Assembly (NCBI GenBank): GCA_903831805.1
Contig: CAIKZD010000017.1
Coordinates: 12,358-76,357 of the forward strand
Source: an uncultured bacterium
Lineage (GTDB): Bacteria; Patescibacteriota; Minisyncoccia; Moranbacterales; UBA2206
Length of the DNA stretch: 64,000 bases
Direction: 5' to 3'
Position numbers and translations under genes: made by a program. The notes beneath the pieces are model-generated. The model had not been told where the DNA came from, did no database searches, and was given only the letters and a program-made list of their open reading frames with translations. How positions within the stretch are numbered: position 1 is the stretch's first letter; every line of letters begins with the position of its first letter. Positions 30,377-63,670 of the stretch are shown piece by piece.

Positions 30377-30419
30377 AATTTTCAATAATCAATTTACAAT
30401 TTTCATTCAATAATCAATA
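30377..30419. repeat. 43-bp AT-rich repeat AATTTTCAATAATCAATTTACAATTTTCATTCAATAATCAAT (copy 1)
   Basis: Identical to 63628..63670; extended flanks are similar; lies in the dnaE/rnhB divergent promoter region. Confidence 0.8.
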
Positions 30420-30869
30420 TTTAATATTCAATTTCGTAATTTTTAAATTAAAAAATTTAAGACATTTATTGAAGATTGATTATTGATCATTGGAAATTGG
30501 AGACAATAAAAACTACCCCAGAGAAGTAGCTTTAAATATTACGCATGATGATACAGTATTTTCCATCTTTTTTATTATCCCCTTAATCCGGATTGCTCCA
30601 TGGATGCGGCAGGATGATTATGAATCCAGTATAGCACAGAGTGTTTTCCATAACAAAAAAGAACCTGGCTATAGTTCCAGATCTTTTTTGTTTTCTTTAA
30701 TATACAGGCCTATATTTATTTCCCGCTTATATGATAAGATGGAAACAATAAACGAAAGAACTATAAAAACACAAAGTTTATTATCTCAAAAAACCATGAA
30801 CATGTCAACCCTGTTAAATAAGTGAGTAAAAATGGGGGCTTGAAATTTTGTAGCTATTTAAATAATGTA

Positions 30870-31658
30870 ATGCCAATAATCATTATGGGGAAAAATTTAA
30901 CAGGGTCAATAGTTGAATTATTCGAGGAAGAAAGGGCTTTTTTTGCCCAAGGATATGATGCAGTTGTCGGAATTGATGAGGCGGGAAGAGGACCATTAGC
31001 CGGACCTGTCGTAGCTGCCGCTACAACAGTCCGGAATTTCCAATTTCTAATTTCCAATTTCCAAACAAATCCTAATGATCAAATTTCTAATGACAAAGAT
31101 TTTTTCAAAAAATTAAATCTCATCAAAGATTCTAAAAAACTTTCAGAGAAGCAGCGCGAGATGTTATATGATTTCATCCAAGAAAATTTCTATGTCGGAG
31201 TGGGGATTTGCGATCACTTGACCATTGATCGAATAAATATTCTGGAAGCGACGTATTTGGCGATGAAGAGCGCGGTGAGTGAACTCACGCGAATCATGAA
31301 CCATGAATCACGAATCATGAATGAAAAAAACATAATTCATAATTCAAAATTCATAATTCTGGTGGATGGCAATAAAGAAATTCCCAATCTTTCCATTGAC
31401 CAAAAAGCGATCGTGGGCGGGGATGGCTTGGTGAAATCGATTGCGGCAGCGTCCATCATTGCCAAGGTGACGCGGGATCGAATGATGAAAGAGGCACACG
31501 GAAAATATCCGCAGTATAATTTTTTGCAGCACAAAGGTTACGGCACTAAGATTCACATGGATGCGCTCAAAAAATTCGGTCCGTGCGAGATCCATCGCCG
31601 CAGTTTCCGGCCGGTGAGAGATGTGCTGGATATGTATCGCTCAACTATCAGCAATTAG
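30870..31658 (+). CDS. rnhB: ribonuclease HII with two in-frame AT-rich repeat insertions
   Basis: DAVVGIDEAGRGPLAGPVVAAA and C-terminal motifs. The start could alternatively be the Met at 30885. Confidence 0.8.
   Translation: MPIIIMGKNLTGSIVELFEEERAFFAQGYDAVVGIDEAGRGPLAGPVVAAATTVRNFQFLISNFQTNPNDQISNDKDFFKKLNLIKDSKKLSEKQREMLYDFIQENFYVGVGICDHLTIDRINILEATYLAMKSAVSELTRIMNHESRIMNEKNIIHNSKFIILVDGNKEIPNLSIDQKAIVGGDGLVKSIAAASIIAKVTRDRMMKEAHGKYPQYNFLQHKGYGTKIHMDALKKFGPCEIHRRSFRPVRDVLDMYRSTISN
31033..31098. repeat. AT-rich TTCCAATTTC/TCTAAT repeat inserted in frame in rnhB
   Basis: GGAATTTCCAATTTCTAATTTCCAATTTCCAAACAAATCC..., encoding RNFQFLISNFQTNPNDQISNDKDFF. Confidence 0.55.
31290..31359. repeat. 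AT-rich GAATCATGAA/ATAATTCA repeat inserted in frame in rnhB
   Basis: CGAATCATGAACCATGAATCACGAATCATGAATG...CATAATTCATAATTCAAAATTCATAATTC, encoding RIMNHESRIMNEKNIIHNSKFIIL. Confidence 0.55.
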
Positions 31659-31712
31659 CCAACAGCGGCCGAATGGCTTGATTTTAAGCGGTATTTGGAG
31701 TAAGCTGGAAGT

Positions 31713-62023: not shown

Positions 62024-62166
62024 GTCATTCTGAGCGAAGCGAAGTCGAAGAATCTACTTTGTGTTTCCATTGGTTATGCTATAGATTGCAAAGCTAGTGG
62101 TAACGCAGGGCAGATCCTTCGACTGCGTTCCTCCGCTAGCGCGTCGTTACTTCGCTCAGGATGACA
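62024..62166. repeat. MITE-like element family 1 copy (between the minus-strand gene and atpD)
   Basis: TGTCATTCTGAGCGAAGCGAAGTCGAAGAATCTAC ... GCAGATCCTTCGACTGCG...CTTCGCTCAGGATGACA. Confidence 0.75.
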
Positions 62167-62221
62167 AAGTTGGTAAATAATCAAGTTAATAAATAATTTG
62201 TAAAAAGTTAAACTAAATTAT

Positions 62222-63628
62222 ATGAAAAATATCGGAAAAATCACACAAGTTATCGGGCCGGTAGTGGATGTGGAATTCGCGGATGGGTTGCCGAAGATTT
62301 ATGACGCGCTGGAAATCGACCTTAAGGGCGAACGGTCCGCCGAGTACGGCGAACAGTCCGCTTCAAAATTGATTCTCGAGACTCATCAGCACACTGGCGG
62401 AAACAAAGTCAGAGCCGTGGCCATGGGGTCAACTGATGGATTGCGTCGTGGGATGGAAGTGACGGATACTGGGTCAGCCATTTCGGTGCCGGTGGGCGCG
62501 GGCGTATTAGGCCGAATGTTTAACCTACTCGGTGAAACGATTGATGGGATTGAAGCGCCGGTGAAATCGGAAAGAAGAGATCCGATCCATCGCGACGCGC
62601 CAAGATTTGAAGATCAATCGACGCAAGCCGAAATTTTGGAAACCGGCATTAAAGTCATCGACCTCATTTGTCCATTCGTGAAAGGTGGGAAAGTCGGACT
62701 GTTCGGTGGTGCGGGCGTGGGTAAAACCGTGGTCATTCAGGAACTCATTCGTAATATTGCGGCGGTGCATGGCGGCTATTCCATTTTCGCTGGCGTGGGA
62801 GAACGGACGCGAGAAGGGAATGATTTATACCATGAAATGAAAGAGTCGGGCGTGCTGGACAAGACTGCTTTGGTCTTTGGCCAGATGAACGAGCCACCAG
62901 GAGCCAGACAGCGTATCGCTCTTTCAGCCCTCACCATGGCGGAATATTTCCGGGACACGGAAGGCAAAGACGTATTGTTCTTTGTGGATAATATTTTCCG
63001 TTTCACTCAGGCCGGCTCGGAAGTATCAGCTCTCCTCGGTCGCATTCCATCAGCCGTGGGCTATCAACCAACCTTGGCGGAAGAGATGGGAAGATTGCAG
63101 GAAAGAATTACTTCGACCAAAAAAGGTTCAGTCACCTCGGTGCAGGCGGTGTATGTGCCGGCCGACGATCTCACCGACCCGGCGCCAGCCACTACTTTTG
63201 GCCATTTGGATTCCACCGTGGTGTTGTCGCGCGGACTGTCAGAGCTCGGAATTTATCCAGCCGTGGATCCATTGGATTCATCTTCGACTATTCTTGATCC
63301 GAAAATCGTGGGCGAAGAACATTATAACGTGGCGCGCGGCGTGCAGAAAGTTTTGCAAAGATATAAAGATTTGCAAGACATCATTGCTATTCTCGGCATG
63401 GAAGAATTGTCCGATGAAGACCGCGTGATTGTGGCGCGCGCGCGCAAAGTGCAGAAGTTCCTGTCTCAACCTTTCTTTGTGGCCGAACAGTTCACTGGTA
63501 CTCCTGGCAAATATGTGAAACTGGCTGACACCATCAAATCGTTCAAGCTGATTTTGGAAGGAGCTTATGACGAAATGCCGGAGCAGGAGTTTTATATGAA
63601 AGGCAGCCTGGAAGAAATCAAAAAATAA
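62222..63628 (+). CDS. atpD: F0F1 ATP synthase subunit beta, with a 12-codon repeat-derived insertion in the N-terminal barrel
   Basis: [10 protein letters not shown]-loop and DELSEED-like region. The N-terminus has an extra [12 protein letters not shown] relative to canonical beta subunits. Confidence 0.95.
62327..62362. repeat. 36-bp GGCGAACGGTCCGC-N8-GCGAACAGTCCGCT element inserted in frame in atpD
   Basis: Differs at 3 positions from the intergenic copy 7511..7546; its centre is CCG-AGTA-CGG. Confidence 0.75.
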
Positions 63629-63670
63629 ATTTTCAATAATCAATTTACAATTTTCATTCAATAATCAATT
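63628..63670. repeat. 43-bp AT-rich repeat (copy 2), atpD-atpC spacer
   Basis: Identical to 30377..30419. Confidence 0.8.

Follow-up and report, generated by a model that had tools for sequence, protein, structure and literature searches.

AT-rich heptamer repeats of a Patescibacteriota contig as probable arms and ORF-less copies of hairpin cassettes linked to PF05635 genes

The window analysed here is the whole 64,000-nt stretch presented above, part of contig CAIKZD010000017.1 of an uncultured bacterium of the Patescibacteriota, and our subject is a set of AT-rich repeats found in and between its genes. In this compact genome, neighbouring genes are a few to some tens of bases apart. The repeats lie between dnaE and rnhB, inside rnhB itself, in the ileS leader, inside a U32 peptidase gene, upstream of glyQS and in the spacers of the ATP synthase genes (Table 1). 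The preliminary description of this stretch, made from the letters alone, had singled out an identical 43-bp repeat in two promoter or spacer regions. The identity is real and joins two loci, but its length is 42 bp: positions 30377-30418 equal 63628-63669, whereas position 43 differs (A versus T). The 42-mer occurs exactly twice in the window. No further match to it was found there with three or fewer mismatches, and there was none in 100 shuffles.

Each 42-mer is the left arm of an imperfect palindrome of about 125 nt, composed of degenerate heptamers of the AATTTTC / GAAAATT type. In both palindromes, called copies A and B, the left arm consists of AATWWWC heptamers and the right arm of their GAAAATT-type complements; in copy A an AT-rich centre separates the left arm from a right arm of ATTGA-type units. 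The similar extended flanks noticed earlier are indeed there, as the copies end in ...AAATTGGAGAC (copy A) and ...AAATTAGAGAC, i.e. AAATT(G/A)GAGAC. The placement in "promoter/spacer regions" is only loosely right. Copy B occupies the entire atpD-atpC spacer, with the atpD stop TAA overlapping its first bases and the atpC ATG 8 nt past its end, and copy A is placed between the start of dnaE and a terminator on the minus strand, 20 nt upstream of the dnaE ATG (minus strand). The window elements contain 14-18% G+C over about 120 nt, and their centres of about 10-40 nt hold no open reading frame (ORF). Folded as RNA, copy A reaches -25.2 kcal/mol (z -3.7) and copy B, whose 58-nt arms are 74% complementary, has a z of -3.4; each beats 200 of 200 shuffles. 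Hidden Markov models (HMMs) of the arms match copy A with E-values of 1.4e-8 and 1.6e-3 and copy B with 3.9e-9 and 2.8e-4. Between the two copies, identity is complete in the left arms but only about 70% in the right arms. Since these paralogous left arms resemble each other more closely than copy A resembles its ortholog in a related locus (L009; loci other than the window are numbered L), recent copying or gene conversion within the genome is indicated.

We scanned public metagenome contigs with an exact 18-mer of the left arm, ATCAATTTACAATTTTCA, the right arm being outside the search pattern. The 18-mer was found in at least 120 metagenome stretches from many environments. Among the matches listed, to which all of the following counts refer, 73 of 125 (the two window copies included) represent elements of 58-162 nt, with a median of 106 nt. 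Their ends, AATTTTCAATT...AATTGAAAATT, are sharp, the termini read AATTTTCAATTATCAATTTACAATTTTCAAT ... ATTGAAAATTGAAAATTGAAAATT, and conservation collapses outside them. The conservation of the right arm is independent evidence, since only left-arm sequence had been searched for. Between co-directional genes, 16 elements have one orientation and 14 the other. Relative to the stop codon upstream, the elements end at about -2 to +10 nt, and relative to the ATG downstream at 0 to +10 nt; in one locus (L013) an element precedes groEL, the ATG of which is 8 nt past the element end. Half elements with a left arm alone are common. Small size (<300 bp), no coding sequence, terminal inverted repeats and many dispersed copies are the marks of a MITE (miniature inverted-repeat transposable element), and the elements have all of them.

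Three signals were sought in the elements and rejected. A promoter in the right arm (TTGAAA-N17-GAAAAT) gave 9 of 12 matches in a consensus scan, not above shuffles. The terminator reading failed for want of a G+C stem and a T-run, and no consensus site for integration host factor (IHF) lies inside any element.

The arms are also found around a gene. In two loci (L088 and L129) they stand about 400 nt apart and enclose an ORF of 118 and 125 aa, respectively, which matches PF05635, "23S rRNA-intervening sequence protein", with E-values of 2.8e-15 and 2.4e-14, as well as the NCBIfam model TIGR02436, "four helix bundle protein". A third PF05635 gene (L103) lies between rnc and smc within 60-nt arms of another flavour, AAAAGTC / GACTTTT. 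In that locus (5935-7217) rnc has an ORF-less TTTCAAT palindrome upstream and the PF05635 cassette downstream. A protein search returned 4218 homologues, named as four-helix-bundle proteins of Moraniibacteriota, Parcubacteria, Nealsonbacteria and Taylorbacteria. Gene and arms overlap: the start codon of the ORF falls within the inner part of the left arm, its stop directly adjoins the right arm, the homologues' N-termini (M-x-QFSN-x-Y) are encoded by ATGAAYCAATTTTCAAAY, which is arm sequence, and so are their C-termini (...KIEN*, encoded by AAAATTGAAAATTGA).

Six further genes of the candidate phyla radiation (CPR) were chosen by protein homology alone (one each in L210 and L212, two each in L213 and L214). 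All six are flanked by inverted arms of 18-53 nt, which are 72-100% complementary and 340-530 nt apart. Five have TTTCAAT-type arms, and HMMs built from the ORF-less elements match at least one flank of these (both flanks in three) with E-values of 4e-7 to 8e-3. The remaining gene, the second one in L213, is flanked by arms of a GATACT flavour and gave no match to the arm HMMs.

The association crosses phyla. A tblastn search of 72,556 plasmids with a CPR protein gave 27 records: Nostoc accounts for 14, Anabaena, Dolichospermum, Aulosira and Planktothrix for others, and Bacteroidota and Chloroflexota for a few. Inverted arms of near-perfect tandem heptamers closely flank 11 of 14 plasmid genes (7 of 10 by score and 4 of 4 by inspection), although in one of the 11 (L219) the repeats look direct, not inverted. 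Nostoc flagelliforme has (AATTCAA)4 / (TTTTGAA)4, 31 nt long and 100% complementary; the arms are of the AGTCGGA and AATTCGC types in N. punctiforme, GTAATTC / ACGAATT in Dolichospermum and Nostoc C052, (CACTGGT)13 in Euhalothece, and CCCCAAT plus CGTAAAT in Planktothrix. The cases in Chloroflexota and Bacteroidota are weaker. For 10 plasmid genes and four CPR genes (L210, L212, L213 and L214) we scored inverted repeats between the upstream and downstream sides, with 53 ORFs of the same loci as controls. A score of at least 14 was reached by 11 of the 14 pooled genes, and the controls had a median of 8 and a 90th percentile of 9. The plasmid four-helix-bundle genes, too, lie in operon spacers (cas2|cas1, helicase|methylase, and the adaptor|permease spacer of a resistance-nodulation-division system). 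Genes in the cyanobacterial plasmid loci L217, L220 and L228 and in L221, L225, L226 and L227 stand between cas2 and cas1 or between helicase and methyltransferase genes (restriction-like operons), and defence operons seem to be frequent landing sites.

In the window, related arrays are read in frame inside the genes of RNase HII and the U32 peptidase. The preliminary description had put the extra segments of RNase HII at about 45 residues. Alignment with the Thermotoga maritima enzyme (3o3g) confirmed both and brought the total to about 40 residues, 24 in insert 1 and 16 in insert 2. Insert 1 spans residues 50-74, reads NFQFLISNFQTNPNDQISND, matches the arm HMM (E 0.002) and is unstructured as RNA (z +1.7). 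Insert 2 is weakly folded (z -2.2), and those of its units that would otherwise give TGA or TAA hold substitutions (TCA CGA, TCA AAA). In the AlphaFold model, residues 51-64 and 146-151 are coil with a predicted local distance difference test score (pLDDT) below 50, and no other internal segments are so low. The segment of the U32 peptidase, which reads QITNDKCQINSKVQISNSKNN, was likewise upheld: its 31 aa are missing from distant homologues, most alignments break at residue ~212, and the domain has 262 aa against 230 profile positions. The peptidase has no sequence match to solved structures. Its array and that of the atpA-atpG spacer do share CAAATGTCAAATAAAT, as had been reported (at 45117 and 60167). 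About 38 of 42 bases of the atpA-atpG array match the left arm of the palindrome upstream of dnaE in L007. Upstream of dnaE, L005 and L007 have palindromes whose left arms are colinear with both arrays (mean column identity 74%), and the arrays are therefore single arms of a second, CAAAT-type family.

All in-frame arrays preserve the reading frame. Because 3 does not divide 7, successive units of a heptamer array pass through all three frames; (AATTTCC)3, for instance, reads NFQFPIS. AATTTTC and AATTTCC arrays are stop-free in every frame, whereas GAAAATT arrays have TGA in every frame. Hence the copies within coding sequence are single C-strand arms or edited hairpins.

Related loci show how these sites turn over. 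The nearest AtpD locus belongs to a metagenome-assembled genome of Patescibacteria (84% identity), and the RNase HII homologues are named Moranbacteria/Moraniibacteriota and Parcubacteria. The atpD-atpC spacer measures 2-10 nt in four CPR relatives (L136, L139, L143 and L144) and contains other flavours in four more (L142, L138, L135 and L130); (AATTTCT)4, ACGAAT-type palindromes and GC-rich elements were seen among relatives. In L131 (8400-8490) the atpD frame appears to continue into an ACACAGA-type heptamer array, from which a C-terminal extension would result. A hairpin is present at the same position upstream of dnaE in four relatives. RNase HII site 1 is built of AATTTCC units in the window and L009, of AAATGTC units in L005 and of AATATCC units in L007, so that all units within one array have changed together; on these alignments this bears the mark of homogenisation by slippage or of replacement. 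At site 2, four relatives have four different repeat families, of which two are GC-rich hairpin elements. Protein-level conservation of the in-frame segments had been named as an observation that would speak against a repeat origin, and it is found in part: the insert 1 peptide, NFQFPISNFQ..., is common to many RNase HII homologues of Moraniibacteriota, but its heptamer DNA unit is swapped wholesale in close relatives. As judged from these comparisons, conservation at insert 1 concerns the repeat family, which sits at a tolerated loop, and not a peptide under selection. Genomes tend to reuse their own flavour at several sites (L005, L007). The filling of spacers, the swaps at a site and the reuse of flavours show tolerated sites being occupied recurrently rather than a functional sequence being inherited.

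The period of seven is specific. Ten segments of the window show period-7 self-similarity, as opposed to 0.1 in locally shuffled controls (about 100-fold); the other periods from 3 to 13 give 0-1 segments each, and period 14, the double of 7, gives 5. Across loci, there are 34 period-7 segments in the 15 loci closest to the window versus 10 in 65 more distant ones. Tandem Repeats Finder reports period-7 arrays at 30405, 30466, 31035, 31291, 31331, 31910, 45095, 58590, 60146, 63658 and 63716, and period-8 or period-9 arrays at 35049/35091, 47272 and 57253. Across the repeats, the window agrees base for base with four assemblies made independently from different samples; the repeats are therefore not assembly artefacts. 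The length polymorphism that had been suggested as a check for slippage did not appear: no insertion or length change was seen among the four assemblies.

From these data we consider it likely that the AT-rich repeats are members or fragments of a class of hairpin cassettes with inverted degenerate heptamer arms, linked to PF05635. The 42-bp segments are probably the left arms of two ORF-less, MITE-like copies of one CPR/Patescibacteria family. The early suggestion of a selfish repeat tolerated in coding sequence thus gains support, the repeats now appearing as arms and ORF-less copies of a dispersed palindromic family linked to PF05635. By this account the ORF-less copies would derive from ORF-bearing ones by gene loss, as MITEs do from insertion sequences (ISs), and the elements would settle where an extra hairpin or loop is tolerated, i.e. 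in stop-to-start spacers of operons, at the tips of leader stems such as that of the ileS T-box, and in surface loops of proteins, where stop-free versions alone would survive. Within an array the unit would be homogenised and replaced by slippage, and between loci the arms would be copied. By analogy with the intervening sequences (IVSs) of rRNA, the transcribed AU-rich stems of 40-60 bp may be cut by RNase III. Such a cut would part atpC from the atpD transcript and leave the flanking cistrons intact, so that insertion into an operon spacer could be nearly harmless. Tandem arms would let the stem form in several registers despite slippage.

Several observations weigh against this account. 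No transposase or reverse transcriptase linked to the elements was found, so that mobility, within and between genomes, has to be argued from their distribution. No direct repeat that could be a target-site duplication was detected in 72 flank pairs, where the AATT ends could hide one of 2-4 nt. No strain polymorphism was seen among the four assemblies of this strain, and no PF05635 gene is present among the small ORFs of the window that were tested. Inverted arms are weak or missing in 3 of the 14 scored genes (L225, L228 and L229, all on plasmids). As insert 1 of RNase HII is common to many homologues, it is old and possibly kept for a reason. The ACGAAT, AAGTTCAT and GTCATT arrays of the window are putative members of the class, placed there by their architecture and their analogy with arms found elsewhere. 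Furthermore, the order of events may have been the reverse, with ORFs landing in the loops of pre-existing hairpins. A clue to mobility could come from the PF05635 protein, which belongs to an Avd-like family whose members are partners of reverse transcriptases in diversity-generating retroelements (PMC10053308); we treat this kinship as a lead only.

Three other explanations were weighed. Locally born microsatellites, i.e. in-place 7-bp slippage in a repair-poor AT-rich genome with any likeness between loci due to convergent low complexity, would account for the joint change of units at RNase HII site 1 and for single-arm arrays that have no structure; bacteria have an excess of heptamer simple sequence repeats (SSRs), for which slippage of the polymerase has been suggested (PMC4692102). 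However, convergence would have to produce 42 identical bases out of 42 across 33 kb in a non-repetitive order of units, the same sharp ends in most of the metagenome stretches (at least 120) with the arm 18-mer, colinear arms at non-orthologous loci of different species, complementary left and right arms in every flavour and a tight association with one gene family. We regard a purely microsatellite origin as very improbable; as the sole explanation it is largely refuted, and slippage survives as a process that remodels the arrays. Classical MITEs, that is, non-autonomous IS derivatives mobilised in trans with the PF05635 gene as an occasional passenger, would share with the elements the terminal inverted repeats, the small size and the many dispersed, sharp-ended copies, and occupancy both in frame and between genes resembles that of the Rickettsia palindromic elements (RPEs) and of Coxiella MITEs (PMC5896051). 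Nonetheless, no target-site duplication was seen, and no transposase parent was found within 4 kb of the 52 listed matches that have no right arm nearby, the long versions enclosing PF05635 genes only. The start and stop of the ORF are built into the arms, and arm flavour shifts together with the PF05635 subfamily. We hold this explanation, too, to be quite improbable.

A host-selected function in cis, be it as intercistronic processing or stabilising signals, attenuators, promoters or protein-binding arrays, is in our judgement unlikely. Start codons 0-10 nt away, terminal sequences conserved across many metagenomes and a hairpin position upstream of dnaE kept in four relatives are what it would lead one to expect, and an Avd-like, nucleic-acid-binding PF05635 protein could bind the arms (PMC10053308). 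Any insertion into the 2-15-nt spacers of these compact genomes, however, would come to lie close to both gene ends. Orthologous spacers are empty in some relatives and filled with unrelated flavours or GC-rich elements in others, the two orientations are equally frequent, copies lie within coding sequence, and the promoter and terminator features are not above shuffles and none, respectively. Binding arrays for a regulator or nucleoid protein, as proposed in the preliminary description, find no support in view of the same empty or other-flavoured spacers, the use of both orientations, the presence in co-transcribed operons, in coding sequence and in a T-box stem, promoter-like matches no more frequent than in shuffles, and the lack of IHF sites in the elements. 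Hairpin cassettes with heptamer arms, linked to PF05635, remain the explanation that we prefer.

The window holds further arrays and repeats. The ACGAAT repeats noted upstream of glyQS are present, and the ACGAATT unit recurs in Nostoc and Dolichospermum, where it makes up the arms that flank four-helix-bundle genes. The AAGTTCAT(A) repeats near atpE exist as well, but a little to the left of the range first given; this AAGTTCATA array lies upstream of the putative atpE (ORF 57386-57613) and has a fold z of -2.0. The region upstream of glyQS (47063-47270) is T-box-like by eye, and a search made at the gathering threshold only gave no T-box there. The palindrome in the ileS leader is an expanded stem (fold z -8.8); in relatives this T-box stem is short (L005 and L007) or holds a different heptamer palindrome (L009). 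The leader (34940-35190) matches the Rfam T-box family with an E-value of 2.5e-8 and 42.7 bits against a gathering threshold of 93, probably because the stem is expanded by the repeat, and annotation pipelines would miss such leaders. At gathering thresholds no Rfam family was found in the window or in three related loci, and only weak chance matches occur around 30300-30900. Neither tRNA nor tmRNA was found in the window; nor was rRNA, so that its copies sit outside the 23S helix 25 and helix 45 sites.

Table 1. Repeat features of the window, numbered from its first nucleotide.
Feature	Positions	Strand	Description	Evidence
Copy A	30377..30505	+	ORF-less palindromic element, TTTCAAT family	inverted repeats, fold, arm HMM
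Copy B	63628..63752	+	ORF-less palindromic element, TTTCAAT family	inverted repeats, fold, arm HMM
RNase HII insert 1	31033..31098	+	single-arm array AATTTCC AATTTCT AATTTCC AATTTCC ... TAATGATCAAATTTCTAATGAC	
RNase HII insert 2	31287..31363	+	weak in-frame hairpin: GAATCAT-type left arm, A7 loop, CATAATT-type right arm	
U32 peptidase segment	45094..45165	+	in-frame single arm, CAAAT family: AAATTAC AAATTAC AAATGAC AAATGTC ...	
atpA-atpG spacer array	60146..60212	+	single arm, CAAAT family; no RNA structure	
8-mer palindrome GTTGATTA... / ...TAATTAAC	35049..35131	+	ileS T-box leader stem, directly 5' of GGTGGTACCGCG T-box sequence	
ACGAATT-type array	47272..47303	+	between glyQS leader terminator and ATG	
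AAGTTCATA 9-mer array	57253..57284	+	directly 3' of the stop of ORF 56499-57251; looser member	
ACGAAT-type array	1438..1490	+	overlaps 3' end of ORF 865-1455	
GTCATTA-type heptamer array	31910..31938	+	in frame in argS (LSLVIGQQSL); weak	
GC-richer palindromic family	13043-13162, 25192-25353, 26020-26140, 35220-35367, 46878-47034, 55006-55148, 62018-62167			
GC-rich double hairpins	8350-8399, 12724-12815, 37819-37868, 55758-55807			

Between copy A and rnhB, a noncoding block (30505-30810) is conserved in L005, L007 and L009, with insertions inside it in L005 and L009. Its minus strand has a strong promoter-like sequence (TTGACA-17-TG-GATAAT, 30808-30780) and two terminator-like hairpins, at 30683-30662 and 30533-30509. 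The block has no Rfam match; it could be a small RNA or a leader or attenuator of dnaE. Two other palindromic families were noticed. One is GC-richer and about 150 nt long, TTGTCATTCTGAGCGAAGC...GTCGAAGAATCTGC ... GCAGATTCTTCGAC...GCTTCGCTCAGAATGACAA; most of its copies lie in the longer intergenic regions, and those at 13043 and 46878 are inside the putative ORFs 12026-13516 (minus strand) and 45806-47062. The other consists of GC-rich double hairpins of the CCTCTCCCGAGTACAGGAGAGA type in frame inside genes, which read SEPLRPFGTHPLSTGEGEV in ileS and GTPPSRVRDTSPEYRGGGE in ORF 55220-56143 and which also occupy RNase HII site 2 in L005. A 1076-aa ORF (8784-12014), apparently a repeat-domain surface protein, contains 5-6 tandem copies of a 174-bp (58-aa) unit at 8915-9847. 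The motif TCTGAACCACTGA occurs at or just past three gene ends (25131-25145, 58577-58589 and 61176-61188), namely downstream of ORF 24479-25096, at ORF 58186-58587 (apparently atpH) and at the atpG stop; twice it is followed by a CACGTGAT-type sequence, and it may be another small repeat. The atpG-atpD gap (61173-62221) is unusually long at 1 kb. It holds a 26-nt hairpin of 92% complementarity (61265-61344), a minus-strand ORF of 109 aa (61476-61805) with no Pfam match, a GC-rich palindromic element and, on the minus strand, a strong promoter-like site (61919-61891).

A wider proposal can be made only tentatively, and we think it possible rather than likely. Inverted heptamer arrays around a PF05635 (Avd-like) gene might form a single class of mobile cassettes across phyla, of which the rRNA IVSs would be the best-known landing site and of which the short tandemly repeated repetitive (STRR) sequences of cyanobacteria, the inverted pairs of Xanthomonas and the CPR palindromes would be arms or ORF-less derivatives. 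The protein might act on its own arms, either in RNA processing or in mobility, which the kinship of Avd with reverse transcriptases suggests could be RNA-mediated. The layout recurs in CPR, in cyanobacteria and, by the literature, in Coxiella. If true, one cassette class would account for the surplus of heptameric repeats that has long been noticed in bacterial genomes. The evidence connects three puzzles that had been treated apart: the nature of the 23S IVS and its S23p protein, the heptanucleotide excess, and the low-complexity inserts in CPR proteins and RNAs. It leads one to predict RNase III cuts in operon mRNAs, binding of the protein to its own arms, and co-phylogeny of arm flavour and protein clade. 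For annotation, NFQFPISNFQ-type peptides, inflated genes, sub-threshold T-boxes and spurious small ORFs of CPR genomes can be read as products of such elements. In the literature searched, the coverage of which was incomplete, we found no CPR-specific description of such repeats, for which we assert no priority, and no link between four-helix-bundle proteins and heptamers beyond the observation in Coxiella.

In the 23S rRNA IVS of Coxiella, a terminal inverted repeat forms a 28-bp stem that is cut by RNase III, the loop contains the S23p ORF, and 2-3 GACAGAT heptamers plus a degenerate one, in numbers that vary by strain, lie directly 5' of the ATG (PMC4990558). In CPR bacteria the rRNA genes are reported to contain ORFs for 23S_rRNA_IVP, together with numerous short insertions that lack an ORF at the known IVS sites (PMC11270868). 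With the IVSs of Coxiella burnetii, Leptospira and Salmonella the window copies share terminal inverted repeats that make a long stem, tandem heptamers in the 5' arm (where Coxiella has GACAGAT beside the ORF start), AT-richness relative to the host, a sporadic distribution and a short, ORF-less form like those at CPR rRNA IVS sites; the ORF of about 120 aa for a four-helix bundle in the loop is shared by the ORF-bearing relatives only. Unlike IVSs, the window copies lie in mRNA spacers, a T-box leader stem and coding sequence and not in rRNA, they have no PF05635 ORF, their arms are much longer (40-60 nt), and many flavours coexist.

STRR heptanucleotide repeats of cyanobacteria were reportedly described by Mazel et al. 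in 1990, and they are said to occur in the P12 stem of RNase P RNA, a structured RNA, as well (Vioque 1997). The GGGAATC heptamers of Xanthomonas and GGGGAYT heptamers of Nostoc are abundant, unexplained and often arranged as convergent inverted pairs (PMC4692102). The repeats of the window resemble all of these in their tandem 7-bp units, mostly intergenic and often in convergent inverted pairs able to form stem-loops, and in differing in length and sequence between relatives at conserved positions. On plasmids of Nostocales, moreover, four-helix-bundle genes are flanked by arrays of ACGAATT, AAATTCA and AATTCGC; a link of STRRs to PF05635 genes was not found in the literature searched. In contrast to the STRRs, with their heterocystous cyanobacterial hosts, units such as CCCCAGT and perfect arrays, the window has a Moraniibacteriota-like CPR host, other units and degenerate arrays.

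RPEs were reportedly described by Ogata et al. in 2000. Like them and the MITEs of Coxiella (PMC5896051), the window elements are palindromic repeats, there of 100-150 bp, in reduced genomes, and they lie both between genes and in frame in essential genes, where they add a surface peptide without loss of function. Site 2 of rnhB is such a palindrome, an in-frame hairpin in a coil of low pLDDT. For RPEs, however, neither a heptamer substructure nor an ORF-bearing form is reported, and the sequences are unrelated. Repetitive extragenic palindromes (REPs), the bacterial interspersed mosaic elements (BIMEs) made of them and the paired form, REPINs, are also short palindromes of operon spacers, dispersed within a genome, with RNA hairpins able to stabilise the upstream mRNA. 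They differ in being 20-40 nt long and GC-rich, with a GTAG/CGTC head and REP-associated tyrosine transposases (RAYTs) (PMC3733652, PMC3116915), none of which the window elements have. The window elements work in the manner of MITEs, RPEs or REPs, but the transposase parent with the same ends that MITEs have was not found for them, the long versions seen enclosing PF05635 genes. Phase-variable SSR contingency loci, with perfect units whose number varies among close relatives and turns a gene on or off, differ from the window arrays, which are degenerate, identical in four assemblies and kept in frame within coding sequence. In summary, the closest known system is the rRNA IVS with its S23p gene, and the window copies should be described as IVS-like ORF-less derivatives, not as IVSs.

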